26,528 nt of DNA from Promethearchaeota archaeon. GTDB lineage: Archaea; Asgardarchaeota; Lokiarchaeia; Sigyniarchaeales; SOKP01. The notes under the pieces are model-generated. The model was not told the origin of the DNA. It worked only from the letters and a program-made list of their open reading frames with translations, and searched no databases. Of the stretch, positions 3,969 through 26,142 are shown piece by piece; the stretch's first letter is position 1, and each line of letters begins with the position of its first letter. Position numbers and translations under genes: made by a program. The stretch covers positions 1 to 26,528 of the forward strand of contig JBHLNT010000047.1 of the NCBI GenBank assembly GCA_048941265.1, given 5' to 3'.

Positions 3969-4721
3969 TTATTTTTGAAATGACGCTTTAAATTCTTTAA
4001 ATTCTTGCAATAATGTATCCAATTTAATTTCCATTTTCTCAATTCGTTTCAATATATTTTTTATTATTTCATTGGTATTCGAACCAACTTCCTTTACTTG
4101 TTCTTCAAATAAAAATTCTGGTTTTTTAATTGGTCTGGTAGGTTTTGATACTTGTTTTGTTTTAGCTGGAGATGGTTTGATTTCTGGTTCTGGCGTCGTA
4201 TCTGAAATAACTGATTCAGCTTTAGGTTTTTGTGTTTTTTGAGATACTTTCTCAGCCTTAAATTCTGCTGTTACTTTAGATGCTTGCTCTGAGATAGTTT
4301 CAGGAACTGCTGTGGGGGCCAATTTTAATTCTCCGACCTCATCTTCATCCATTTGAAGATCTACAATAATATCATCAATAAGATTGAACTCTTTGTGTAA
4401 AATTTCTTGAAATTCTTGATTAATTGCATCGGTTTCAGCGTCTTTTCCAACTTTCCTCTGGTCTATTTCTTTTATAATTCTTGTCCTACTCCCTATAATT
4501 GTGTCTCTTGCTTTATAACCATAACCTTTAAGATTCTCTGCCTGTCTACTGGCAATTCTACGATCAACCAAACTTCTTTTATCACCATGCCATAACCATA
4601 CAGCGGGTGTTAATTCCTCTAATATTATTATCGAACGATCAGGTAGAAAAACTTCTCTATTCCATTTAATTGGCTCAATCTCACCATCCTTTAATACGTT
4701 GAACATTAATGCGTATTTCAT
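3969..4721 (-). CDS. Gelsolin-like domain protein with a P/K/E-rich linker and C-terminal coiled coil
   Basis: FLPDRSIIILEELTPAVWLWHGDKRSLVDRRIASRQAENL resembles the gelsolin-repeat core. ATG at 4721 is preferred over the upstream TTG at 4760. The C-terminus has a heptad pattern (IIKNILKRIEKMEIKLDTLLQEFKEF). Confidence 0.6.
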   Translation of the reverse strand: MKYALMFNVLKDGEIEPIKWNREVFLPDRSIIILEELTPAVWLWHGDKRSLVDRRIASRQAENLKGYGYKARDTIIGSRTRIIKEIDQRKVGKDAETDAINQEFQEILHKEFNLIDDIIVDLQMDEDEVGELKLAPTAVPETISEQASKVTAEFKAEKVSQKTQKPKAESVISDTTPEPEIKPSPAKTKQVSKPTRPIKKPEFLFEEQVKEVGSNTNEIIKNILKRIEKMEIKLDTLLQEFKEFKASFQK

Positions 4722-5093
4722 TGTATTTTTACCACTCTCAATAGTATATAATATTTTCAAAATTTTACTTAAATTATCTATTCCATATTTAAAAATTTAT
4801 TTTTATGGATAGCATGAAAAAGATGATCAATAGATAATAACATAATATTTTGCTTCAAACCCTATTAAAATTTATTTAATTTGACTTTTTAATCAAATGT
4901 AATTTTCTTTATATTTGAAAATGAAAAATTATTATAAACAGAAAAAAAATTAGATTTTTTGTAATTTTTTATCAAATAAGTAAGGAATAAGTCAACATTT
5001 GTCAATCATTATTTCCTTTTTCGACATCTTCTTTTTACTTTTTACTAGTTAGAAAAGTTATAAAATGAGAAAAAGTAAGGATTCGGTAATTGC

Positions 5094-10145: not shown

Positions 10146-13100
10146 ATGCGTTCAATTCGAAACAAAAAAAAAATTAAAAATAAAGGAATTTTAGAAATTT
10201 CGTTTTTATCATCAATAATTGTGATTTTATTTCTAATTCAGATTAATAATATTTCCCCTTTATTATCACCTAACTGTAAAGTAAATGAGAATCAAAATCT
10301 TACTACTTTTAATGATAGTTTAAGGATTTCTGCTGATAAAGACATATTATTTCAGGGAACGGAAGAAGCCTTAAATATTACTGATTATGGTAATCTATAT
10401 AAACCGAATCAAGAAGTTTCGTTAACAAATGAAGAAGAACTAAATTTTTCTTATGATTTAGATACTGTTAATAATTGGAAGATCTCGAAGATAGAGAATT
10501 CGATTTCAAACATTCAAGATACGAGAAATTGGATAAATAATAGCGATATTTACCCAATAACTAGCTTTAGAGTGGATTATCCTCTTGTAAAAAATTATGG
10601 ATATAACGAAGACGAAAATGATAATCTAGTTACAATTGACGCACCAATTACTGCAGGTGCAACAGCCATGAGAGTACATTTTGTTAATATCTCTTTTCAA
10701 TATTATTTAGATTATATATTTATCGAAGATGAAAATTTTGTACGATATTATATAGATACAGGTTTTAAAGAAGATTTTTTCTCTCCTTGGATAGTTGGAG
10801 ATTCATTACGGGTTTACATCGAGTCTGATAATACAGGCCCAAATCCGGGTGATGGATATATTATTAACTACTATGAATTTATAAATGCTAGTTCAAATTC
10901 GCAAATAAATTTTTATTCATGGGGCTCATCGAATGATGTAGATAGTAGTGTGAGAACAACATTTGGATCAGGATTGATGAATGGTTCCACAGCCTTTTAT
11001 CTTGGAATGCATGGAAATTCATTTTTTGATGCAACATATAACACATATAGGACAACTTATTATAAGGGGGATTATATTGAGATATATCAAAATATTTCTA
11101 TTCCAAGAGGCAAATTGATTGATGCATATATTAGCTTTGACTATTATCCTCAATTTGCAATGGATGCTGGAAATAATTTCCTCTACTTTGCTATAAATAA
11201 TCAAGAAATTTATTCAAAATCCTTACTGGAGATAGTTGATTTGGGTAGAAATCAATGGCATTCTACTGGAAAATATAATCTCGAACTATGGTCAAATACG
11301 TCTAATGTTTTTGATAATATACTTAATGATCAACAACTTAATATATCATTTGGCATTAAAAGTAAAAGTTTCACAACATATAGTTACTATGTCGATAATT
11401 CTCAACAAATATTTTGGTTTGATAACATTACTTTAGGACTGACAACCATTGCTAATTCGACTCAAGAGGGAATAAATTTAACAATAAATAGTGTTAATCT
11501 ATTCGATGGTAATCAATGGGGTTATGCATCCCGAGATTTTATTGATATACCGCAAAAAGATCCTGTTATTCTAACCATAAATACAACATCTCCAAGCATT
11601 AAATTTGATTTAAACACAACTCTATATGGATATCATAAGTCAACGTCCAAAATCAATCAAGAACATGATGAGGGTATTTCATATAAGATTTTGGAAAACG
11701 GCACAATAATTTGGGAATTTTTACATAATTTTTATTGGCCTCCTCAGTATTCAGATTTTGAGTTTATAATTGAAAAACCACTAAATTGGAAATTTCATTA
11801 CGTAAAAGATCAGGGTAATAACTTAAGAACCTTTGAAGGTGGAGAAGTAGGGGATAATTACTTGAAAATTAATAAAACAGAAGCTGTTTTTTATGGGTGG
11901 TGGTCATTTAAAGCGAGCTCGCCTAACTATATCAATGTCACAAATACTAAAATGCTAAAAAACGGTCAATGGACACATAGTAGTTTTACATCTGGGGAAT
12001 CCACGAAGATTAAGACAAATATAACTTATAATAATAAAATTCCACCGCATTTGAATTATACTCTTGTAAATTTAGTAATATATGATCCACAGAATGAACT
12101 TTGGTATAATAATAGTATTACCCCGGAATTAAATGGTCAGGTAATATTTTCATTAATACCATTCACATCAAAAAATACCCTTGGAGGAGTATACATTTAT
12201 AAGCTTTTATGGAGAAATGGAACAGCATTAGGTGGTATATCTTCCAGTTTTATTATATCTCATGAAAGTAAGTTAGAACTATTAAAACCCGAAGAGGCTG
12301 AAGATGATTTAAGATTAGAAGCATTTCTCGGGGATATCATTCCCTTAAGAGTATATCTTTATGATGATGAAAATGACTTGCCAATCTCAGGTGCCGTTGT
12401 TTATTTTGAATGGGAGGATGGGAAAAAAGAATATCTTGAGGAAGCTTCTCCTGGAGTTTATGAAGCAACAATTGAGACTAATAACTTTAAATCGACAGGT
12501 TTGCATAAGATTGAGATTCACGCATCAAAAATAGGATTTTCCGATAGTGAAATAGTGTTAGAATTAGAATTGACTGAAGAAACCGATTTACTATTTTGGA
12601 TTATAATTGGGGCATTAATCATTATAGTTAGTATATTAAGTGTTTTAAGTCTAAGATCTTACGTTTTCATACCTCGAAAAGAAAGAAAAGAAGCAGAATT
12701 GATAGCAAAAACACAAAGATATAAAGATCTTCAAAATATTCAAGCAGTAGTTATTATTCACAAATCTGGAGGTGTGCCAGTTTATTTAAAGAGCTATTCA
12801 ATATTAGAGCACCAAAAAAAGGAATTATTTTCTGGATTTATTCAGGCAATAACTACAATTGGGGAAGAAATTTCGGGGAAAGGAACCATTATTGCCGATG
12901 AAAAAGAAGTAAGTAAAGAAGAAAGAATACTTGAAATTGATTTCAAGCACTTTCATTGCTTGATTGCGGACAAGGGGATTGTAAGAACAATTTTTATTCT
13001 TCGAGATAAAGCTTCTGAGAGATTAAGAAAACATGTCGCAAACTTTTCATTAGATATTTATTCTAATTTGAAGGAGAGATTTGATAGTTGGGATGGAGAT

Positions 13101-13418
13101 CTAGATGAATTTGAAAGGGATATCCCTCCTATTTTAAATGACCATTTTGAATTATATTATAAAGAGCCTTGTATATTAACAAAACCAGAAATCATAGCAA
13201 AAATTCGAAAAGATAATGAACTCAATTCCATGGAGTTGCGAATATTAAATGTTATTTACTCATTTCTAAAAGGTAGGGGGAAAAACGAATTTTATTTGGA
13301 TTATATTTTAGAAGTAGTGCATGAAGAAAACAAAGATTTGATAATAGAATCCATAGAAACTCTTCTTAATAGGAAAATTATTATTCCTAGTCAAGATGAA
13401 AAATACAACTTAATATAA
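10146..13418 (+). CDS. Large single-pass membrane protein: beta-rich ectodomain (CUB-like and Ig-like segments), TM helix, cytoplasmic longin-like domain + winged helix
   Basis: Basic then hydrophobic N-terminal signal/anchor and many NxS/T sequons. CUB-like stretch AMRVHFVNISFQYYLDYIFIED...DSLRVYIESD...GYIINYYE; TM LLFWIIIGALIIIVSILSVLSL; longin-like IQAVVIIHKSGGVPVY...LFSGFIQAITTIGEEI...; wHTH-like end. Confidence 0.8.
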   Translation: MRSIRNKKKIKNKGILEISFLSSIIVILFLIQINNISPLLSPNCKVNENQNLTTFNDSLRISADKDILFQGTEEALNITDYGNLYKPNQEVSLTNEEELNFSYDLDTVNNWKISKIENSISNIQDTRNWINNSDIYPITSFRVDYPLVKNYGYNEDENDNLVTIDAPITAGATAMRVHFVNISFQYYLDYIFIEDENFVRYYIDTGFKEDFFSPWIVGDSLRVYIESDNTGPNPGDGYIINYYEFINASSNSQINFYSWGSSNDVDSSVRTTFGSGLMNGSTAFYLGMHGNSFFDATYNTYRTTYYKGDYIEIYQNISIPRGKLIDAYISFDYYPQFAMDAGNNFLYFAINNQEIYSKSLLEIVDLGRNQWHSTGKYNLELWSNTSNVFDNILNDQQLNISFGIKSKSFTTYSYYVDNSQQIFWFDNITLGLTTIANSTQEGINLTINSVNLFDGNQWGYASRDFIDIPQKDPVILTINTTSPSIKFDLNTTLYGYHKSTSKINQEHDEGISYKILENGTIIWEFLHNFYWPPQYSDFEFIIEKPLNWKFHYVKDQGNNLRTFEGGEVGDNYLKINKTEAVFYGWWSFKASSPNYINVTNTKMLKNGQWTHSSFTSGESTKIKTNITYNNKIPPHLNYTLVNLVIYDPQNELWYNNSITPELNGQVIFSLIPFTSKNTLGGVYIYKLLWRNGTALGGISSSFIISHESKLELLKPEEAEDDLRLEAFLGDIIPLRVYLYDDENDLPISGAVVYFEWEDGKKEYLEEASPGVYEATIETNNFKSTGLHKIEIHASKIGFSDSEIVLELELTEETDLLFWIIIGALIIIVSILSVLSLRSYVFIPRKERKEAELIAKTQRYKDLQNIQAVVIIHKSGGVPVYLKSYSILEHQKKELFSGFIQAITTIGEEISGKGTIIADEKEVSKEERILEIDFKHFHCLIADKGIVRTIFILRDKASERLRKHVANFSLDIYSNLKERFDSWDGDLDEFERDIPPILNDHFELYYKEPCILTKPEIIAKIRKDNELNSMELRILNVIYSFLKGRGKNEFYLDYILEVVHEENKDLIIESIETLLNRKIIIPSQDEKYNLI

Positions 13419-13450: not shown

Positions 13451-14098
13451 ATGGTACAGAAAAAAGAAGAATTTAAAGAACTTAGGTTTGTCTGTACAAG
13501 ATGCGGAAATTGTTGTATTGATAAGAATACTCTTGTAAATCTTACTTATTCTGATATTTTAAGAATTAAGAATGGTCTAAAATTAACAGTCGAGGAGATT
13601 TTAGAAATCCTCGGATTTTATATTTTTGATAAAAAACCTACTGAAGAAGAAACAAAAAAAATGGTTGTTCCTCCATTAGAAACCGAGCGAGGCTTAGCTT
13701 TTATAGGCTTAAAAAAAGATTCCTCTGGAAAATGTTACTTTTATAATGATAAGCGAAAAAAATGTTTAATATATAAAATCAGACCAATGTTTTGTCGGAC
13801 ATTTCCATTTACTTTCCGAATTTTCTTTAATAAAGAAAATCCAAATCAAGCCAAGATAAAAATGCAATATACAGAGAAGGGTATGAAATATTGCCCTGGA
13901 ATTGGTGATGATAATCCACTCATAGATGAGGATGAGTGGATTAAAGTTGGTAAAACAACTATTGAAGAAATGAGTGCTAATAATGTGCTTATTGAAAAAT
14001 GGAATGAAGTGGCTAAGAAAGGAAAAATTAAACCGACGGCTAAAAATTTTGTCTTAACTATTCTTAAATTAGAACAAAAAAACTCTAAATTGAGTTAA
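13451..14098 (+). CDS. YkgJ-family cysteine-cluster (putative Fe-S/Zn) protein
   Basis: FVCTRCGNCC, CYFY, CLIYKIRPMFCRTFPF, YCPGIG. Confidence 0.9.
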   Translation: MVQKKEEFKELRFVCTRCGNCCIDKNTLVNLTYSDILRIKNGLKLTVEEILEILGFYIFDKKPTEEETKKMVVPPLETERGLAFIGLKKDSSGKCYFYNDKRKKCLIYKIRPMFCRTFPFTFRIFFNKENPNQAKIKMQYTEKGMKYCPGIGDDNPLIDEDEWIKVGKTTIEEMSANNVLIEKWNEVAKKGKIKPTAKNFVLTILKLEQKNSKLS

Positions 14099-15624
14099 CT
14101 TAATTCTGCGTATTGTGCACCTGCTATAAGTGCCCAAAATAACATTCTTAATTCGATAGTTAATGCAGATTTTTCTATTTTCCAATTAAAATACTCATTT
14201 GAATTATCAGAGTCGAAAAAAGTAGTGCTCTCTGTTATAAAATTGAACAATTCTTTACAGAATTCGGATTCTATTCTTTTTAAATCGAGTAAGTCGAAAA
14301 TTAAGAGCATTCTGGCAGAATCCGTTATAGAGAGGTAAATTTTATCATTTTGCGTTATAATATTTTTCAATTTTATAGCATAATATCTGAATTGATTTAA
14401 ATTTATTATGTTGTCTAACAGTTGTATAATTGATAATTGTTCAAAGATATCTAATATTTGATTGATTGATTCCTTGCTTGAGAAAATATCTAAACTTAAA
14501 ATTGGATTTATCTGATGTGTTTTAATTTCTCTAATTGCATCACTTTGTTCTAGTAGTTTTAAGCAGAGGATTTTATAAAAATTTAAATGTAAATTCTCCC
14601 GTATAAAATCTTTCAATTCAGACTCGAAGTAAACTTGAATGTCAGAAACATTGATTATATCCGTATTATTTAAGATTTTTAATTCTAAAAGAATTGAAAG
14701 TCCAAAGTAATTACTAATTGGATCTGGTTTTCCATCTTTAGAAGAACAAAAAGTTTTGCTACTTACAAATCTTTTGAGGATATGAATAATTTCATCTACC
14801 TTAAAAGGGAGATTAATATTTAGCATTTGAAGTATAGAAATAAGATAAAAGAGATTTTCTAAGTCATAAAAGTCTTGATTTCTAATAATACTATTTATTA
14901 AATTATCTTTATTAATATTGAATTTTTTCAGAACTTCTTCCTTAATTGGATTGAATTTTAAGAAATAATATAAAGAAGGTTCATGAATTTCTTGGGTTAT
15001 AGAATTTGGTTGTTGAATTAGCTGCGATGTAGACTTGTAAATATTTTTTTTTTCAGCACTAATCCTTGTCAAATCAATTGAGAAATCAGAAGGATTTATA
15101 TAATTCGTGAGAACTGATATATTTTCTTTTATTATATTATTTGTCAAGGCTGATATTTCATGTTCTTGTTTAAAATTATCGAGGTTATTAATAAAATTAT
15201 TAGGTAACAAATCAAAAAGATTTAATTTCTTCATTTTTGAAGAATCTCTTTCGAATAAATATTCTAATAAAATTTCGAGAAGTTGTTGTTCAATATACTC
15301 TCTTAAATGCTTATCTAAATTATTGTAATAATTTATATTATTTTTTGAATTTTCTAAGAGATTTTCTTTGAATTGTTTAAGTACCGTGTTTAATTTTACT
15401 TTAGGGACGCCAATAGTCATTAATGCCAGGTTTGTTATTTCGATTACTCTTTCTATGATTTCTCTGCTAAATTTTTCCTTATTATTAAATTCATCTATAG
15501 GAAAATGAAGATCTCTTTCCTCTAAAATTTCTAGAGTATACCAATAGAATCTCTGATAGAAATCTAAAATTTCACTTTGAAATTCCTGATAGAATGCTGC
15601 TAATAAACTGGCTAATTCTTCCAT
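14095..15624 (-). CDS. Hypothetical all-alpha protein; C-terminal half resembles degenerate alpha/alpha-barrel (prenyltransferase-like) repeats
   Basis: 509-aa ORF with recurring helices DLENLFYLISILQML, DPISNYFGLSILLEL and SITDSARMLLIFDLL. Its stop overlaps the convergent gene's stop at TTAA 14095-14098. Confidence 0.7.
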   Translation of the reverse strand: MEELASLLAAFYQEFQSEILDFYQRFYWYTLEILEERDLHFPIDEFNNKEKFSREIIERVIEITNLALMTIGVPKVKLNTVLKQFKENLLENSKNNINYYNNLDKHLREYIEQQLLEILLEYLFERDSSKMKKLNLFDLLPNNFINNLDNFKQEHEISALTNNIIKENISVLTNYINPSDFSIDLTRISAEKKNIYKSTSQLIQQPNSITQEIHEPSLYYFLKFNPIKEEVLKKFNINKDNLINSIIRNQDFYDLENLFYLISILQMLNINLPFKVDEIIHILKRFVSSKTFCSSKDGKPDPISNYFGLSILLELKILNNTDIINVSDIQVYFESELKDFIRENLHLNFYKILCLKLLEQSDAIREIKTHQINPILSLDIFSSKESINQILDIFEQLSIIQLLDNIINLNQFRYYAIKLKNIITQNDKIYLSITDSARMLLIFDLLDLKRIESEFCKELFNFITESTTFFDSDNSNEYFNWKIEKSALTIELRMLFWALIAGAQYAELS

Positions 15625-17422: not shown

Positions 17423-18133
17423 TTATTTCTTTAATAAATCTTTCCCTTCATTAATCCATTTTTTTATTCTCTCTTCAGAAACCCCTGAAATTATCATACT
17501 TAATTCCTCTGGGATTTCTTTTATTAAATCTTCAACAGTATTAACACCTACTTCATTGAATTTCTTCACAGTCGCTTTACCCAAGCCTGATAATTCAGTT
17601 AATGGAGTTCCTATTTTTTCTTCCTTGACTATTTCTTTCTTTTTAGGTTTTTCTTTTTCATCTAGTTTTTCCTCAATAATTGGAACTAATTCTTCTTTTT
17701 CTATTGGTTTCTCTTTTATTTTGATTTTTGGGATTCTTTTTGCTTTGCTAGGTTGCTTAACTTTTTGTTTAGGAATTTTAGCCACCTTAACTGGTTTTTG
17801 AGCAGGGACTTTCACTTTTTCAACTGGTTTTGTTTTCTTCTTTACTTTCTTTGTTCTAACTCTTACTTTCTTTTCTTTTCGAATGAAGGGTGGTCTTTTT
17901 TTTTCTTTCCTAACAGGTACTTTTATTTTTTTTAATTGTTCAATATTAGATTGATGAACTGATTTTCTTTCAAAATCTATTTTTATACCTAATGTTCTAA
18001 TCATTTGGATACTTTTTGCTGCTGCCTTTATTTCACCTAAGGAAAAACCACTTCCTTTTCTTAAAAGTGCTTCCCTAGAGGGCGATTTAACAATAGCTTG
18101 GGGTTTAATGCTAGCGTCTTCAGTTTTTTCCAT
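17423..18133 (-). CDS. rpl13e: Ribosomal protein eL13 (L13e) fused through a Lys-rich linker to a C-terminal helix-hairpin-helix domain
   Basis: N-terminal PQAIVKSP...RKGSGFSLGEIKAA...LGIKIDFERKSVHQSNIEQLK matches the L13e signature. C-terminal LTELSGLGKATVKKFNEVGVNTVEDL...ISGVSEERIKKWI is a tandem HhH. Confidence 0.82.
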   Translation of the reverse strand: MEKTEDASIKPQAIVKSPSREALLRKGSGFSLGEIKAAAKSIQMIRTLGIKIDFERKSVHQSNIEQLKKIKVPVRKEKKRPPFIRKEKKVRVRTKKVKKKTKPVEKVKVPAQKPVKVAKIPKQKVKQPSKAKRIPKIKIKEKPIEKEELVPIIEEKLDEKEKPKKKEIVKEEKIGTPLTELSGLGKATVKKFNEVGVNTVEDLIKEIPEELSMIISGVSEERIKKWINEGKDLLKK

Positions 18134-18268: not shown

Positions 18269-18916
18269 TTACATTTTAATAATATCTAATTCATGTAATT
18301 TTTTAAGAACATCGTTGATTTCATTTCTGGAGGTTTCTAATAATCTTGAAATTTGGAGAGGGGAGTTTTCTCCGTTGCATTTTAGAGCGACTTTAAGTTC
18401 GAAGTCATTTATCATCCCCATACTCAAGATTTTATCAAGCACTGATTTCATAATTAAGACTTTCGGAAAGACTTCCGCAATGCGACCTCCAAGGCTTAAA
18501 TTTTCAATCTCTGTTTTAAAAGCTTTAAATCTATTTTTTTCGGTAGTTGTTCTATATATTTTAAGATCGCTCTGATGTTTCTTCCAAAATCGACCACCTA
18601 TTTTATGAAGTACCATTCTTATGGTATTAGTTTCATCATCCGCATCCGAAATTGAGCAAAAAAGGATTCTCGATAAGGGATGGTAGTAAATAATTATGGT
18701 TGATTCCTCAGATTCAACAACCCGAGTCATTTCATTTACTCTTCTTCCTTTTGCCATACCTTCCTGAACGTCATCAATCATCCGATTTATTATACTAAAA
18801 AAAACTGCCAAAATTTCATCCTGTACTGTTGAGATAGATTTTTTAAATTCTTTAAATGTGAATTCTAATAAGGACACACCATTATCAGCATCGATTAAGA
18901 ATATTTTATAGATCAA
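18269..18916 (-). CDS. Longin-like domain + C-terminal winged-helix protein
   Basis: IYKIFLIDADNGVSLL (two strands), helix, three strands (TRVVES / TIIIYY / ILFCSIS) and helix give longin topology. LKCNGENSPLQISRLLETSRNEINDVLKKLHELDII is a wHTH. TTG start. Confidence 0.75.
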   Translation of the reverse strand: MIYKIFLIDADNGVSLLEFTFKEFKKSISTVQDEILAVFFSIINRMIDDVQEGMAKGRRVNEMTRVVESEESTIIIYYHPLSRILFCSISDADDETNTIRMVLHKIGGRFWKKHQSDLKIYRTTTEKNRFKAFKTEIENLSLGGRIAEVFPKVLIMKSVLDKILSMGMINDFELKVALKCNGENSPLQISRLLETSRNEINDVLKKLHELDIIKM

Positions 18917-19053: not shown

Positions 19054-20457
19054 TTAAATATATGAACTTATTAATTCTGTAAGGATATTTGAAAAATTCG
19101 GTAAAAATTTTTCGATTTTCTCTATACTATTTTCTTCCATAAATAAAAGTAAATATAGAGTATATTTATTAACTTGAATTTTTTTAAAAATGATGTTTTT
19201 TGAATCAGTTTTCATACCAGAAGAAATGATATAATCTTTCTTTAAGAGCTTAAATTCTTTAAACGTTTTATATAATGTTTGGAAGTGTGGGGCTGAAATT
19301 TCAAATACTTTGGTTGGAATTTCTTCCTTAGAATAGCTAGACAAGATTATACCATTCTCATTTAGTAATAATAAAGCATCAGCATCGGTATTATCCGCAA
19401 AGATTTTCAGTCGGTTTTTAAAAAATTCTCTGTTGGGGCTCAACTGAGAAAGTCCGTAAGAATAAGCCGAGACAAGGGACCAGTAATCAAATATTGAGGT
19501 TTTAAAAATTTTAATGAAGAAGTTTTCAGCTTTTCTTTCTATTTGAGAAGTGATGATTTCCATATTTCTATTAATTTCTTCAGAACTCTTAATATCCGGG
19601 TCAAATTTATTTAAACATATAACAATCGGAGGGTATTCATCAAGTTCTTTCAATGATTCGATGATATTAGAAAAGAGTTCTAATGACTCCATCACTCTCC
19701 TAAAATCTTGTATATCAATTAAGTAAAATAATAAATCTATATTATAAAGATAAAATTTACTCTGCTCCAGATATTTTTCTCGATATCGTTTTTGACCTCC
19801 TAAATCCCATATAGTAATATGAGAATATTGTTCCTCAAAAATAGTCTCTTCAGATCTCTCCACACCCTTAGTGGGTAATGCTTTAATTATTTCAGAATAT
19901 TTTTTTTTTACTCCAAATAGAAAACTTGTCTTACCAGCTCTATCTAATCCTGCAAGTACAACTTTAATTTTTCTTTGTGAAGAAAAAGGATCTTTTAAAT
20001 CATTACAAAACGCAACTAACTCTTCTCTTAAATCATTCATAATTTTTTGGTACTGTTCGAGATTATCAGAATTTTGTATTTCTGTAGCTGTCTTATCGAT
20101 AATAACTCTTAAATATTTCATATTTTCATAAAAGAAAGTTGATTTTTCTTCGTCTATTAAGACTGTAATTGTTGCGGCCATAGCGTTTCCCCTCGCATTT
20201 TCGTCAGCAATTAGAAAGAAGTAAGTTAATCCCTTTAATCCTAAATCGGGAAAAGGAAGGACTCCAAAATAATTAATATCCTCAATAGAATTGCCATTTT
20301 GATATATAACATCGCCCATAAGTAGACTTATTGTTTTAGTAGCAATTAATAGGCGGGCCCCTTCCTCTAAAGTTTCTGGCCAATAAATTTTTGGAGTCGG
20401 CCCATTATCGTCAAAAATACTAAGTATTATTGATTTAATTATATTTTTATTTGTCAT
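19054..20457 (-). CDS. Fusion protein: FLCN/uDENN-like longin domain + Rag/Arf-like small GTPase + roadblock domain
   Basis: G1 GLDRAGKT (aa 170-177), G2 PTKG, G3 WDLGGQ, G4 NKFD and G5-like TSIFD, followed by the Rag-like segment SQLSPN...FADNTDADALLLL. N-terminal IILSIFDDNGPTP and FLIADENARG. Confidence 0.88.
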   Translation of the reverse strand: MTNKNIIKSIILSIFDDNGPTPKIYWPETLEEGARLLIATKTISLLMGDVIYQNGNSIEDINYFGVLPFPDLGLKGLTYFFLIADENARGNAMAATITVLIDEEKSTFFYENMKYLRVIIDKTATEIQNSDNLEQYQKIMNDLREELVAFCNDLKDPFSSQRKIKVVLAGLDRAGKTSFLFGVKKKYSEIIKALPTKGVERSEETIFEEQYSHITIWDLGGQKRYREKYLEQSKFYLYNIDLLFYLIDIQDFRRVMESLELFSNIIESLKELDEYPPIVICLNKFDPDIKSSEEINRNMEIITSQIERKAENFFIKIFKTSIFDYWSLVSAYSYGLSQLSPNREFFKNRLKIFADNTDADALLLLNENGIILSSYSKEEIPTKVFEISAPHFQTLYKTFKEFKLLKKDYIISSGMKTDSKNIIFKKIQVNKYTLYLLLFMEENSIEKIEKFLPNFSNILTELISSYI

Positions 20458-20637: not shown

Positions 20638-22440
20638 TTAGGATTTAAATCTAATACATGAGATTTTTGAACTCCCACAAATTGTTTTTATTAATTCTTG
20701 TATATTTTGTACCTCATTTAGTGAAATTTCTACGATATTAAGTCCATTTTTCATTATCTCATGAAATTCACCCTGTTGAGAGATTCTTTTCATTAAACCT
20801 ACTTTAATATTTTTCCTAAAATGAGATGAATTCGTGTAATACGCATTTACTTCTTTTAATAATGGTCTTGTGGTCTCAGGAAAGTGTTTTAAATCTAATC
20901 TTTTAAATCGGAATAATACTTTATTTGAAAGATTTTCTTGTAATACATAACTTTTCCCATCTTCATTTCCAATTACCTCACAGAACTTCTTCATTTCATG
21001 AATGATTTTCTTTCCAAATTCAAAAGCATCCGCATGTTCATGAAGCTCATAATTAGTTAAAAATTTAATTGTTTCATTTAGTCCTATAAAATTAAAAGCT
21101 AAGTTTTGATTTTCTAATTTAAATAATTGTTCATGATTTTTTATAAAACTGCTGCATAAAGGTAAGTGTTTGGACCTTAATCTTTTTTCTATTATTTCAT
21201 ATTTTTTTTTAAAAATTTGAATACAGATTTTCATCTTATCTTTTAAAATTTCGATAAATTTATCTTGGTCTTTGCTTATATAAGCATATCTGGGCAGATT
21301 TAGGCTAATATTTTGAAGGGTTCCTATATTATGAATTTTTTCTCCTTCATATTGGTTTTTTATTTCTTCTTTAACCCATTGAGCACATAAATTAACAATA
21401 TAAACATTTTTGCCCGTTTTTATCTCTTCCCAAACTTTAGAATAGGAACTATTCAATACCTCTAGCCAATCCTTGTTTATGTAGATTATATGTTTAGGAT
21501 AATTAAATTCATTTCCCTCATTATCTCCATGGGTAAATATTTTACTAATAAAATCAAATAGTTTAATATTTTCATTAATATAATCTCCATAGATACCAAA
21601 AATTTTACCATGTGGACCTATTGCGGGTACTTCTGAAAAAATATCCAAAATTCCTGGACTACATGATATTGAGGTAATTGGAGTGTCTCGTCCAATTACA
21701 GCCGCTAGTTGGTTTATTTCGTAAATTAATTCGTGCATGTTATGATTGATCTCATTTTGATTTAAACCTTTGGCGTACGGAGCTAAAAATGTCGTTACAA
21801 AATTAAATCCCTGTCCTCCACTAAATTCTCCTTGAGACATTGCTAACCATTTAACCAAATGATGGATTGCAGTTCTTAGATCCTCTGCGGGCCTAGATTT
21901 ACTGCAATATGGCCAATTTTCAACAGGAGGTAACCCATTTTTAAGAATCATACGAGGATCCCACGCTTGGCTTAAAGGTCTTAAATCAAAATATTTTAAT
22001 TTGTGGATATGAATATCTCCATATAAATGCGCTTTAGATTCCTCATCATTAAGGATTCTTAAGAGAGTATATTCTTCTGCTAATTGATTTGCAGCCCAAT
22101 GATGGATTTTTTCGGGATTAATTACTTCTCCACGTTTCGATTTTGGTCCTTTCTCAAGTATTTCTTCATAATCCATTAATGGCATTCCAATTCTAGTATA
22201 TAATTTTCTTTGTTCTTCAAAATGTTGTTCTGAGAGAATAGAACATACAATTTCCCGAATATGAGGTCCAGAAAGAAATTTTATCCCAGAACTAATAATT
22301 CTTCTTACAACTAACTCTGTAATTTTTTTTGTATCCGCTTCTGTCATACCAGTTTCCATTTGAATACTCTCAAAAATCTTAGAGGGATCAAACTCAACCC
22401 AATCTCCTTCTGTTCTAAATACTTTTGGTAATAAATCCAT
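20638..22440 (-). CDS. ATP-cone + class III ribonucleotide reductase (NrdD)-like protein lacking the catalytic Cys motifs and the glycyl-radical domain
   Basis: ATP cone (VFRTEGDWVEFDPSKIFESI...GPHIREIVCSIL), YTRIGMP, AHLYGDIHIH, FSGGQG, ISLNLPR, FIGLNE, YYTNSSH. Ends before the Zn-ribbon and RxxGY loop. ATG at 22440 is preferred over TTG at 22458. Confidence 0.85.
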   Translation of the reverse strand: MDLLPKVFRTEGDWVEFDPSKIFESIQMETGMTEADTKKITELVVRRIISSGIKFLSGPHIREIVCSILSEQHFEEQRKLYTRIGMPLMDYEEILEKGPKSKRGEVINPEKIHHWAANQLAEEYTLLRILNDEESKAHLYGDIHIHKLKYFDLRPLSQAWDPRMILKNGLPPVENWPYCSKSRPAEDLRTAIHHLVKWLAMSQGEFSGGQGFNFVTTFLAPYAKGLNQNEINHNMHELIYEINQLAAVIGRDTPITSISCSPGILDIFSEVPAIGPHGKIFGIYGDYINENIKLFDFISKIFTHGDNEGNEFNYPKHIIYINKDWLEVLNSSYSKVWEEIKTGKNVYIVNLCAQWVKEEIKNQYEGEKIHNIGTLQNISLNLPRYAYISKDQDKFIEILKDKMKICIQIFKKKYEIIEKRLRSKHLPLCSSFIKNHEQLFKLENQNLAFNFIGLNETIKFLTNYELHEHADAFEFGKKIIHEMKKFCEVIGNEDGKSYVLQENLSNKVLFRFKRLDLKHFPETTRPLLKEVNAYYTNSSHFRKNIKVGLMKRISQQGEFHEIMKNGLNIVEISLNEVQNIQELIKTICGSSKISCIRFKS

Positions 22441-22567
22441 ATTTATACCTGAATTCAAATATTTTTGTATATGTTATTGAATTCAAGAAGTTTAAAAAAA
22501 AAAATTATTAACACATTAAATTTGAATTTAATATATTAAAACGTATTAAAGAATTAGGATTCCTAAA

Positions 22568-23850: not shown

Positions 23851-26142
23851 ATGAGACATTCAGATGCGGATCAGTTTTTCGATGAGGTTAAGCTCAAAAT
23901 AAAGCGAGGAATTGTAAAGAAAGATATAGACTTAGAAAAACTTGTCAAAGAAATTGTAAGTTTCAATGTGAATTTCTTAACTGAATTTCAAAGGCTTACG
24001 AAAAAAATCCAAGCTGTAAATGATTATGATCTTATAGATTTATATGGTGATATATTCAAGGTTATTTTAAGATATTTAAAAAATTATAGAGAAGATAATA
24101 ACATAAAAGAAATTTCTATAACAAACGATTTTGTTGAAAATTTTATTGATGAAATCGTAGATATATTAGTCATAGAAAAGCTTTGCTTCAATTGTAAATC
24201 TCCTAATATTTACAAATCAAAAAGTCCTTTTGATGAAACTCGAACATTATATTTCTGTAGACACTGTCAAAAAAGTGTAAAAGTATTTCAAAATATTAAA
24301 TATTTGCCGATTTTTTTAATATATCTAAATAAATGGATGTTAGACTTTAATATTAGAGATTTAAATAAAAATTTACCTAAAATTAAGAATTATAATGAAG
24401 ATTTCGTATTTTATCTCTTTTCTGATTGCCTAGATTTTTTCAAAGATAAAGGTTCTTCAGATACTTTGCTAATGCTTTATGAAATTTTGATAAAAAATGA
24501 TATAAATCACATAATTATCAATGATTCTCGTAAATTTCAAACAGTCTTAATTGAAAATTTAAAAGAGTCGTTAAATAGACAAGATTTTTATGATTTTTTC
24601 ATAGGGAAAAATTATTACAACTCAAAATACGGAGAAATACCTCAAGATATTAAGTTTATGATTGTCGATTCAATTGTCAAATCTCTAAAAACGGGTGAAA
24701 TCTCTAAGATTAAATATGCTATTGAAAATCTCAATGAAGATGAATTTTTTACAACTTTAGATTTATCATCCAATAATAAAATCAAGCAAAAAATTGAGAA
24801 AAATTTTTATTTAGGGCTTGGAAATTGTCTTAGATCGAAAAATTTTGAAAATTTTGAAATAATGGTGGATTCCTCAATTGATTTTGATATTTTTATCGAT
24901 GTCCGAAAAATTCCAAACCGTTTTGAAATAATTTCGGCCCTTGTTTTAGATTGCGTGCGAGAAGTGAGTGAGGGCTATCAGACTTCGAGTTTAGGAAAGG
25001 AAATTGATATCTTGCGTTTTTGTAATGATTACAACTTATTTGAGAGAGACTTAAAAGAGGAGGAGTTAAAAATTATAGAAAATCTTAAAAGAGATATTCT
25101 ACTAACGAGCAATTTACATGATTTATTTGGAGAAATATCTAATTGTTTTCTGTTATTCATAAGAAAAACCATCCCTCAAGACTTATATCAATTCTTTATA
25201 GGGGAACAATATTTATATTATACTGATCAAGACCAACTAGCCTTTTATATAAAAAATGTATTCTTTAACCAATATTCTATCTATGGCTTAAGCGTCAGGT
25301 ATTTAAGTTCTGCTAAGAATTTTATTAAAGAATTCAAAAAATACTTCTTAAAAAATGAAAGTAATTTGGCAAACGATTTTATGGAATTTCCAATCTCCTA
25401 TCAATATCAAGTTTATTTTTATCTTGAGTATGAACGCGACCCATATACCATAGTTAAAAAGCATTTAGTTGCTCCAAAAGTTATTTTTAAGAATATTGAT
25501 AATATATTAGCAAAAAATAATTACAAATTTTATTCTCTTTCAATGGTATTATTAGGGGGACTTGGTCCCCAAGGACATGGATTCACATATTCTACTCCTA
25601 AGGGAGAGGTAATTGAAATCTGCAGTGATGCCCGGGAGAATGAAGCTATAATTGTAAAATATAAACAATTTTTAAGACAACAATTTCTAACTAGATTGGA
25701 AAAAGAATTGCGGGATTTTCATGTAAATATTGAAGTTATAAATAAAATAACAAATTATTTGTTAGAAATTCTTGATCAAAATGAATTGATTAATTATTAC
25801 AAAAAAGGAAGAATCTTAAGGAAAATTAAGGAGTTTCTTTATCAAAATACTCATCAAGATGAGATCAAAAAGATTAATATAGATTTTAAAAACTTAATCG
25901 ATGATATTACAAATGCAATCAATAATATCCTTAGAGAAATCAAAATGGAGGATCAGTTCAAAACTCGCATGGATTTAATTTTAAAAAATGAAATGAAATC
26001 TGAGGATATAGCAAAAATGACATCCCTGAGACAAAAATCACACTATGACGTTCTTCGGGAAAGATTTTTCTTTCAATACATAGTGGATTGGTTTTATGAG
26101 GTATATTCTACCAACAAAAGCAATAGAAAGAAATTACCTTAA
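23851..26142 (+). CDS. Large hypothetical protein with a CxxC...CxxC zinc ribbon
   Basis: 763-aa ORF with CFNC...CRHC, a helical middle region and the Gly-rich motif SMVLLGGLGPQGHGFTYSTPKGEVIEICSD. Confidence 0.8.
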   Translation: MRHSDADQFFDEVKLKIKRGIVKKDIDLEKLVKEIVSFNVNFLTEFQRLTKKIQAVNDYDLIDLYGDIFKVILRYLKNYREDNNIKEISITNDFVENFIDEIVDILVIEKLCFNCKSPNIYKSKSPFDETRTLYFCRHCQKSVKVFQNIKYLPIFLIYLNKWMLDFNIRDLNKNLPKIKNYNEDFVFYLFSDCLDFFKDKGSSDTLLMLYEILIKNDINHIIINDSRKFQTVLIENLKESLNRQDFYDFFIGKNYYNSKYGEIPQDIKFMIVDSIVKSLKTGEISKIKYAIENLNEDEFFTTLDLSSNNKIKQKIEKNFYLGLGNCLRSKNFENFEIMVDSSIDFDIFIDVRKIPNRFEIISALVLDCVREVSEGYQTSSLGKEIDILRFCNDYNLFERDLKEEELKIIENLKRDILLTSNLHDLFGEISNCFLLFIRKTIPQDLYQFFIGEQYLYYTDQDQLAFYIKNVFFNQYSIYGLSVRYLSSAKNFIKEFKKYFLKNESNLANDFMEFPISYQYQVYFYLEYERDPYTIVKKHLVAPKVIFKNIDNILAKNNYKFYSLSMVLLGGLGPQGHGFTYSTPKGEVIEICSDARENEAIIVKYKQFLRQQFLTRLEKELRDFHVNIEVINKITNYLLEILDQNELINYYKKGRILRKIKEFLYQNTHQDEIKKINIDFKNLIDDITNAINNILREIKMEDQFKTRMDLILKNEMKSEDIAKMTSLRQKSHYDVLRERFFFQYIVDWFYEVYSTNKSNRKKLP

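Follow-up and report, generated by a model that had tools for sequence, protein, structure and literature searches.

The DNA analysed here, referred to as the window, is a stretch of 26,528 nucleotides (nt) from a Promethearchaeota archaeon (contig JBHLNT010000047.1 of assembly GCA_048941265.1, G+C content about 28%). On its minus strand, at 19054..20457 with the stop codon included, lies a gene with an ATG start codon and a product of 467 amino acids (aa). The encoded protein is a conserved Asgard small GTPase of the Promethearchaeota/Lokiarchaeia type that consists of three modules, with a longin domain at the N-terminus, a Rag/Gtr-like G domain in the middle and a roadblock domain at the C-terminus. 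The longin domain is of the kind found in the eukaryotic GTPase-activating proteins (GAPs) FLCN, SMCR8 and NPRL2, the “GAP-longin” type, and it carries a conserved arginine, Arg89, at the position of the catalytic arginine finger. We lean towards the view that the protein is a self-contained Rag-like switch, whose roadblock and longin domains mediate dimerisation and in which a G-domain pocket of the assembly receives Arg89 from the GAP-type longin. The Rag GTPases, together with the longin GAPs FLCN-FNIP and GATOR1, form the core of eukaryotic amino-acid sensing upstream of mTORC1, and SMCR8-C9orf72 is a related GAP that acts on Arf. The family described here provides a simple system for considering the origin of such nutrient-signalling switches.

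Domain architecture and the type of longin domain

A first-pass annotation of this DNA, made from the sequence alone, had described the open reading frame (ORF) as a protein of three parts and had given positions for its motifs. Translation and a motif scan found the ORF and all of the motifs in place, and Pfam and AlphaFold bore out the three parts, namely a longin, a G domain in which Gln222 and all of G1-G5 are intact, and a roadblock. The longin domain covers aa 7-153 (19999..20439, on the minus strand like all coordinates within the gene) and is recognised by AlphaFold2 (AF2), Foldseek and the Pfam family Folliculin. It contains two elements that were located by conservation and by alignment with SMCR8. 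The first is the Gly19-Pro20 (GP) motif in the β1-β2 turn (20398..20403), which is part of SIFDDNGPTP (aa 13-22), and the second is the D-E-N-A-R-G loop of aa 85-90 between β4 and β5 (20188..20205), with the candidate arginine finger Arg89 encoded by an AGG codon at nt 20191-20193. A short linker (aa 154-162, 19972..19998), in which aa 155-162 have a per-residue model confidence (pLDDT) below 50, leads into the G domain of aa 163-340 (19438..19971), which is supported by Pfam Gtr1_RagA, by matches in the Protein Data Bank (PDB) and by Gln222. Its nucleotide-binding motifs are G1 (GLDRAGKT, aa 170-177, nt 19927-19950), G2 (PTK, nt 19867-19875), G3 (DLGGQ, aa 218-222, nt 19792-19806), G4 (NKFD, aa 283-286, nt 19600-19611) and G5 (TSI, aa 320-322, nt 19492-19500). 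The roadblock domain (aa 343-467, 19057..19431), identified from AF2 and sequence matches, is the counterpart of the C-terminal dimerisation domain of the Rag/Gtr proteins. A full-length AF2 model built on an 88-sequence alignment contains three well-formed domains, the longin at aa 9-153, the G domain at aa 163-337 and the roadblock at aa 343-466, with a predicted template-modelling score (pTM) of 0.49.

The longin fold is confidently predicted. An AF2 model of aa 1-155, built from a 21-sequence alignment, reached a pLDDT of 89.9 and a pTM of 0.86 and has the longin order β-β-α-β-β-β-α, with the GP at the β1-β2 turn, at the start of the strand formed by aa 19-26, and Arg89 in the β4-β5 loop. 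We compared this model with the PDB using Foldseek, and in the first 20 rows there were two for the Lokiarchaeal longin 8yqg (E 4.5e-9, template-modelling (TM) score 0.74), 15 for chains of GATOR1/SEAC, Lst4, C9orf72-SMCR8 or FLCN-FNIP2 complexes (E 1.5e-4 to about 1e-2), two for DENND1 and one for a LOV protein; only four matches had E<=0.001. The N-terminal longin proposed in the first-pass annotation is therefore upheld, and its closest eukaryotic structures are longin-GAP complexes. Two longin profiles searched against PDB sequences also returned 8yqg first (profile E up to 4.3e-25) and human SMCR8 second (E 0.27 for A1 and 0.022 for A3, the more divergent of the two profiles), the latter in the same register over the whole domain. 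In these profile alignments the GP falls on G68-P69 of SMCR8 and A-R-G on A146-R147-G148, which places Arg89 on Arg147, and the SMCR8 motif “DLEARG”, which the first-pass annotation had quoted, is seen there. Pfam Folliculin (PF11704) matches aa 77-140 of the window protein with an E of 1.9e-4. The same family is found at E<=0.01 in 52 of 88 relatives (alignment A2; best E 4.3e-6), some of which pass its cutoff, such as P0153 with 27.1 bits. A protein-atlas search with the longin gave only leads below 0.9, including one cluster in which 19% of the members carry NPR2.

The two elements have a known meaning in eukaryotes. According to the available text of PMC8213707 and PMC9473554, Arg147 of SMCR8 is a structurally confirmed arginine finger for ARF1, with the C9orf72 longin holding the GTPase, and Arg164 of FLCN and Arg78 of NPRL2 are catalytic fingers toward the Rags. 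The GP motif is described in the accessible part of PMC12290439 as specific to GAP-type longins, being present in SMCR8, C9orf72, FLCN and NPRL2 and absent from FNIP2, NPRL3 and other longins. The window protein has the longin fold, a GP before strand 2 and a conserved arginine at the finger position, the last placed there by alignments with marginal E-values, and on these grounds we assign its N-terminal domain to the GAP-longin type. The eukaryotic complexes SMCR8-C9orf72 (an Arf GAP), FLCN-FNIP2 (a RagC/D GAP) and NPRL2-NPRL3 within GATOR1 (a RagA/B GAP) share with it the longin fold, the GP turn beside a loop arginine and a Rag- or Arf-type GTPase as target class, but they are separate proteins whose longins form heterodimers and act in trans, whereas the longin of the window protein sits on the GTPase chain and its catalysis is a prediction. 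In FLCN and SMCR8 the longin is also followed by a DENN domain. No Pfam match to a DENN or NPR2 domain was found after the longin here, where the GTPase and roadblock stand instead; lacking a DENN domain, the protein does not count as an orthologue of FLCN or SMCR8, and the FLCN/SMCR8-like identity suggested at first holds for the class of the longin domain and not for the protein as a whole. The closest solved structure of the N-terminal domain, 8yqg (the longin of a Lokiarchaeota Roadblock-Longin protein), also has the GP, but an arginine is missing where Arg89 would align, and the domain is joined to a roadblock rather than to a GTPase.

The remainder of the protein is Rag-like. Pfam Gtr1_RagA (PF04670) matches aa 165-379 with an E of 4.3e-25 (88.9 bits against a cutoff of 22), and Pfam Arf scores lower (E 1.3e-19, 70.7 bits). 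The best matches among PDB sequences were LokiRagO (8yl2, E 1.5e-34) and LokiRagM (8zla/9m28, 4.4e-25), and these Lokiarchaeal Rag-like matches begin only at aa 155 of the query. Arf1 and RagA came next, both near 4e-12 (RagA 3.8e-12), with a RagA alignment that spans aa 154-446 and so runs through the C-terminal domain. When aa 301-467 were searched alone (167 aa), they matched LokiRagO (6e-9), RagA (0.007), Gtr2 (0.016) and Gtr1 (0.046), and in this C-terminal alignment the junction TSIFD...LSPN pairs with TSIWD...LIPN of RagA, a parallel that the first-pass annotation had drawn and that proved correct. In the full-length model the roadblock has the secondary structure α-β-β-α-β-β-β-α, and a Foldseek search with that model gave only Rag/Gtr/LokiRag chains in the first 40 or so ranks (LokiRagO, RagA/C, Gtr1/2, LokiRagM). 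Judged by its motifs, the G domain has all that catalysis requires, namely G1-G5 and the switch II glutamine Gln222, which is kept in 121/121 sequences of the alignment described below. With Gtr1_RagA above its cutoff, a roadblock directly after the G domain and intact nucleotide motifs, the protein is classed by its domains with the Rag/Gtr GTPases, for which the available text of a preprint by Vargova et al. gives a clade of Asgard and eukaryotic members (RagGtr) in a phylogeny of small GTPases. RagA-D, Gtr1/2 and the LokiRagO (8yl2) and LokiRagM (8zla/9m28) structures share with the window protein the G domain with C-terminal roadblock and the junction TSI(F/W)D...(S/I)PN, and they are its best matches in both sequence and structure. 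However, both the Rag/Gtr proteins and the LokiRag structures are without an N-terminal longin, and the eukaryotic Rags are obligate heterodimers under the control of external GAPs.

Conservation of Arg89 and an arginine-less sister paralogue

A word-indexed homologue search, in which 8000 candidates were scored, identified 517 homologues at E<=1e-3. The best 120 of these are 445-489 aa long and 66-92% identical to the window protein, and where their sources are named they come from Promethearchaeota, Lokiarchaeia, Hod-, Hermod- and Thorarchaeota. The nearest relative among the fetched loci is P0003, from a Promethearchaeota metagenome-assembled genome (MAG), with 91% protein identity and a conserved gene order. 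In a 121-sequence alignment, Arg89 and Gly90 are each present in 121/121 sequences, Ala88 in 118, Gly19 in 119 and Pro20 in 120, while the flanking positions 84, 86 and 87 vary freely. Conservation of the DxxARG motif in orthologues had been put forward as a check on the arginine finger, and it is borne out in the invariant Arg89-Gly90. Only 11 longin positions are nearly invariant among 88 diverse relatives (F15, G19, P20, P27, K41, G48, P68, F69, P70, R89 and G90), a set that contains the GP as well as Arg89 and Gly90.

We also searched aa 1-155 exhaustively against 1.84 billion representatives, which gave 118 matches at E<=1e-3, or 117 without the query's own cluster. The Arg89 column is covered by 101 of these distant representatives, and 70 of the 101 have R-G there. 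Among the 117 representatives, 61 join the longin to a G domain, which is Rag-like in 30 and Ras-like in 31. The Rag-like fusions divide into 11 with R-G, 10 with no arginine, five with the arginine only and four in which the column is not covered, and the Ras-like fusions into 27, two, two and none, respectively. The corresponding numbers for the 56 representatives in which no G domain was detected, many of which are short fragments, are 32, 10, two and 12. The Ras-type fusions (P0141-P0238, about 335-357 aa, e.g. P0160, P0222 and P0153) join a longin with both GP and R-G to a Ras/Rab-like G domain and have no roadblock. Pfam confirmed the two classes in 12 examples, with Ras matching the proteins of about 345 aa (E 1e-44 to 1e-51) and Gtr1_RagA those of about 500 aa (E 1e-19 to 1e-24). 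In a maximum-likelihood tree of 89 longin domains, which was arbitrarily rooted, has several flagged long branches and leaves out 35 rows with fewer than 110 match positions, a Ras-fused clade is split from the rest with a support of 97/88 and the Rag-fused longins all group together in a single clade (97/96). The latter consists of an R-G-bearing group that includes the window protein (99/97) and a group without R-G (94/84). The recurrence of the fusion with Rag-like and Ras-like G domains, in separate clades, suggests that the fused G domain is a functional partner of the longin.

The group without R-G represents a sister paralogue. Using its member P0174 (506 aa) as query, we found 534 proteins at E<=1e-30, of about 500 aa and from the same lineages. 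This family (P0174, P0239-P0357) has the longin-Rag-roadblock layout and has lost the arginine: among the best 120 of the 534 matches, the GP is present in 119 and R-G in none, while G1, G3 and the switch II glutamine are kept in all 120 and G4 reads SKxD in 116. One member, P0281, is 34% identical to the window protein across all three domains (aa 4-503 against 1-467, E 1.3e-79). The paralogue and an R-G-bearing orthologue appear to occur on the same contigs in at least 10 genomes, as in the pair P0281/P0003 of MAG LW40_45. This is judged indirectly, from equal lengths of the contigs (671810 for P0281 and P0003, 27118 for the paralogue P0330 and the orthologue P0018) and from the locus tags EU539_02835 and EU539_02915 of P0330 and P0018. 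At two loci (L019:1-405 and L030:1-348 (-)) the N-terminus of the paralogue lies at the locus edge, about 5.6 kilobases (kb) upstream of the GTPase gene and on the opposite strand to it; no copy is present within the window itself. Because both 8yqg and this family (R-G in 0/120) keep the domain without the arginine, the arginine is not a requirement of the fold. The pairing recalls catalytic/non-catalytic pairs of the SMCR8/C9orf72 type, and by its sequence the arginine-less paralogue is a candidate second, non-catalytic longin subunit.

The proposed switch, its alternatives and earlier work

In the self-contained switch that we favour, the protein would dimerise via its roadblock domain and probably also via its longin. 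Within the dimer, the longins would cup a GTP-bound G domain, and Arg89, beside the GP turn, would reach into the nucleotide pocket and act there as an arginine finger, speeding GTP hydrolysis. The off-signal would in this way be built into the switch itself, and some input could release or block it. We infer the dimerisation, the docking of longin on G domain and the GAP catalysis, as well as the target, which may be the protein's own G domain, that of a second copy or that of the arginine-less paralogue. The first-pass annotation had proposed a single-chain Rag with its own FLCN-type GAP. The type of the longin, the alignment of the GP and Arg89 with the SMCR8 motifs and the Rag-like remainder all agree with that proposal, but the full-length monomer model, which has a pTM of 0.49 and is of low confidence at the linker and at switch I, does not fix the arrangement of the domains and predicts no contact between longin and G domain.

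Several further results count against a built-in GAP. Foldseek matches the eukaryotic longins with modest E-values (1.5e-4 to about 3e-2, TM 0.45-0.59), the Folliculin score of the window protein (21.8 bits) lies under the gathering cutoff of 23.3, and the profile alignments with SMCR8 are statistically marginal (E 0.022-0.27), while neither longin profile reached FLCN or NPRL2 in the searches of PDB sequences. R-G longins also occur without a fused GTPase (32 of the 56 such representatives) and the arginine is missing from 10 of the 30 Rag-fused ones, and it is therefore neither exclusive to the fusions nor obligatory in them.

A different explanation, which we regard as the strongest competitor although we give it clearly less credence than the switch, holds that the longin is a non-catalytic platform, serving in dimerisation, as a scaffold, in a manner like that of a guanine nucleotide exchange factor (GEF) or in the binding of an effector or ligand, that the GP and R-G are structural or binding features, and that hydrolysis depends on Gln222 or an external factor. 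Longin and roadblock dimers are mostly GEFs or scaffolds according to the available text of PMC10933270, and the title of the 8yqg entry indicates that a Lokiarchaeal longin crystallised as a dimer. The absence of a longin-G contact from the monomer model and the arginine-less Rag-fused relatives both speak for a platform, and Rag-like proteins of the LokiRagO type manage without a longin altogether, some of them in the same neighbourhoods. However, both of the motifs that distinguish GAP longins from GEF or scaffold longins are present and nearly invariant, and they align with G68-P69 and Arg147 of SMCR8. The fold does not need the arginine, as 8yqg and the paralogue demonstrate, and the top structural matches in eukaryotes are GAP complexes and not TRAPP, SNARE or adaptin longins.

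It is also conceivable, though improbable in our judgement, that Arg89 is a true finger which serves a separate GTPase outside the protein's own family, such as an Arf-like or Ras-like GTPase or the longin-less Rag-like protein whose gene lies close by in most relatives, with the fused G domain regulating that GAP or acting as its sensor. Eukaryotic longin GAPs do act in trans on separate GTPases, as the accessible text of PMC8213707 and PMC9473554 describes, and free-standing R-G longins exist, which must work in trans if they are GAPs at all. In 59/80 related loci, this longin-less Rag-like protein of 320 aa, a possible substrate, is encoded upstream at a distance of a few kb. The window has no such upstream gene, yet its R-G longin is intact, and the longin class has become joined to G domains in two independent settings, one Rag-like and one Ras-like, which make up separate clades. 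Finally, that the protein is a plain Arf-like GTPase with an uninformative N-terminal extension, as the name “ADP-ribosylation factor-like protein” in relatives' records and the Pfam Arf match (1.3e-19) might suggest, is very improbable, given that Gtr1_RagA scores higher (4.3e-25) and reaches into the C-terminal domain, that RagA aligns over aa 154-446 and Rag/Gtr/LokiRag chains fill the first 40 or so Foldseek ranks, and that the N-terminus is a confidently folded longin of about 150 aa with no Arf amphipathic helix and the C-terminus a roadblock.

Within the self-contained switch, the paralogue allows a more specific and more doubtful arrangement, which we put forward by analogy. The window protein and the arginine-less paralogue may form an asymmetric heterodimer in which the roadblocks pair like those of RagA/RagC and the longins cup like those of SMCR8/C9orf72. 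The single finger would then switch off one G domain only, giving the opposite-nucleotide-state logic of Rag dimers. Both Rag heterodimers and the catalytic/non-catalytic longin GAP pairs could descend from such an assembly, having later been separated into free-standing proteins.

Longin-GTPase fusions in Lokiarchaeum were reportedly described in a 2020 preprint by Liu et al. A study of 2016 (Klinger, as summarised in PMC4917890) found five longins fused to Arf-like GTPases in Lokiarchaeum, and roadblocks fused to Rag-like ones, and Lokiarchaeal proteins with the folliculin N-terminal domain were noted in the available text of a 2018 preprint (10.1101/385732). In the available text of Tran et al. 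2024 (PMC10933270), longin-GTPase-roadblock “Rag-like” proteins are described from Ca. Prometheoarchaeum syntrophicum MK-D1. These have the same three-domain layout and come from the same lineage as the window protein, and the two almost certainly belong to the same family. That text presents the architecture only and mentions neither an FLCN/SMCR8/NPRL2 longin class nor a GP or arginine motif nor a built-in GAP. A survey published in Traffic in 2025 (PMC12290439), in its accessible part, reports the GP and arginine-finger motifs in Asgard longins of the FLCN/SMCR8 type, in the same structural places as here, and likewise proposes that these longins may be GAPs, leaving their partner GTPase as a question. 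The words “fused” and “GTPase domain” do not occur in the available main text of the survey, whereas the longin of the window protein is covalently attached to a Rag-like G domain. Some of its 15 proteins may be longin-GTPase fusions (Data S1), and two of its supplementary files contain no mention of Asgard, Heimdall, Lokiarch or “GP motif”.

The novelty suggested in the first-pass annotation was therefore overstated, with longin-GTPase fusions (2016), the three-domain layout (2024) and the Asgard GP and arginine motifs (2025) each already published. We found no publication that joins the longin-Rag-roadblock layout to GAP-type motifs, a link that might be stated in the papers behind 8yl2/8zla/9m28/8yqg, in Klinger 2016 or in Data S1. 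Within the literature searched, it appears to be new that the longin is explicitly identified as GAP type, with the GP and an invariant arginine, that a longin with GP and R-G recurs on Ras-like GTPases, and that there is a conserved arginine-less sister paralogue. To the question of the partner GTPase raised by the 2025 survey, gene structure suggests an answer, namely Rag-like GTPases here and Ras-like GTPases in the relatives. If Arg89 is catalytic, the protein would offer, from a single gene, a minimal and soluble model of Rag-GAP regulation, one that lends itself readily to tests in vitro, and the longin-GAP mechanism would date from before the eukaryotes. The pair of catalytic and arginine-less paralogues would offer a concrete hypothesis for the origin of both Rag heterodimers and two-subunit longin GAPs.

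Genomic neighbourhood of the GTPase gene

We examined the surroundings of the gene in the window and in 80 related loci. At 137 nt downstream of the GTPase gene is a 215-aa ORF with a TTG start (18269-18916, minus strand), which has a counterpart downstream on the same strand in 71/80 loci. Its only family match is a weak C-terminal winged helix-turn-helix (wHTH) of the TrmB type (E 0.017), and a protein-atlas search with it gave only Promethearchaeota clusters. We considered whether this neighbour is itself a longin or roadblock protein and found no support for the idea, as comparison with the longin profile in hhalign gave a probability of 19.8% and no PDB, NCBIfam or significant Pfam match was found. 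Further downstream is a gene for a lysine-rich protein of 236 aa (17423-18133, minus strand) that weakly matches ribosomal L13e (E 1.2e-4, below cutoff) and ends in a helix-hairpin-helix domain (HHH_5, E 2.6e-10). Synteny of this gene holds in 66/80 loci. At 180 nt upstream of the GTPase gene and on the same strand (20638-22458) is a gene for NrdD, the anaerobic ribonucleotide reductase, with a TTG start, a weak ATP-cone and a Pfam NRDD match with an E of 4.9e-71. It is syntenic in 70/80 loci, some of which have only a short piece or one on the opposite strand.

In many relatives, a membrane protein of 404-436 aa is encoded on the opposite strand between the GTPase and 215-aa genes (L003:7421-8731 (-), L046:7412-8626 (-)), and by eye it has a transglutaminase-like Cys/His core; the window does not have it. 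A second GTPase had been considered for the gap of about 1.4 kb that separates these two genes in most relatives, but the gap contains this membrane protein instead. The upstream 320-aa Rag-like gene mentioned above encodes a G domain and a roadblock and is LokiRagO-like (e.g. L008:826-1788). In 68/80 loci there is also a gene for a zinc-ribbon protein of 317 aa (L008:2004-2957), the C-terminus of which resembles a roadblock by eye, and neither of these genes is present in the window. The window also contains ORFs of 1090 aa (10146-13418, plus strand), 509 aa (14095-15624, minus strand), 763 aa (23851-26142, plus strand) and 263 aa (3969-4760, minus strand), none of which matched a Pfam family at E<=1e-5.

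A few of the related loci have peculiarities of their own. In the orthologue on the complete chromosome CP070805.1, a stretch of N, read as X, breaks the sequence (L079:6792-6920), and what looked like a broken, truncated gene is an assembly gap. The MAG DZ2M.348 has two loci, L020 and L080, in which the gene product is 66% and 67% identical to the window protein and the local arrangements differ, which represent either two copies or a mixed bin. The cluster of NrdD, GTPase, 215-aa and L13e-like genes is also found on DATKTW010000091.1 (L032), which is labelled “Candidatus Nanopelagicaceae bacterium” and is probably mis-binned.

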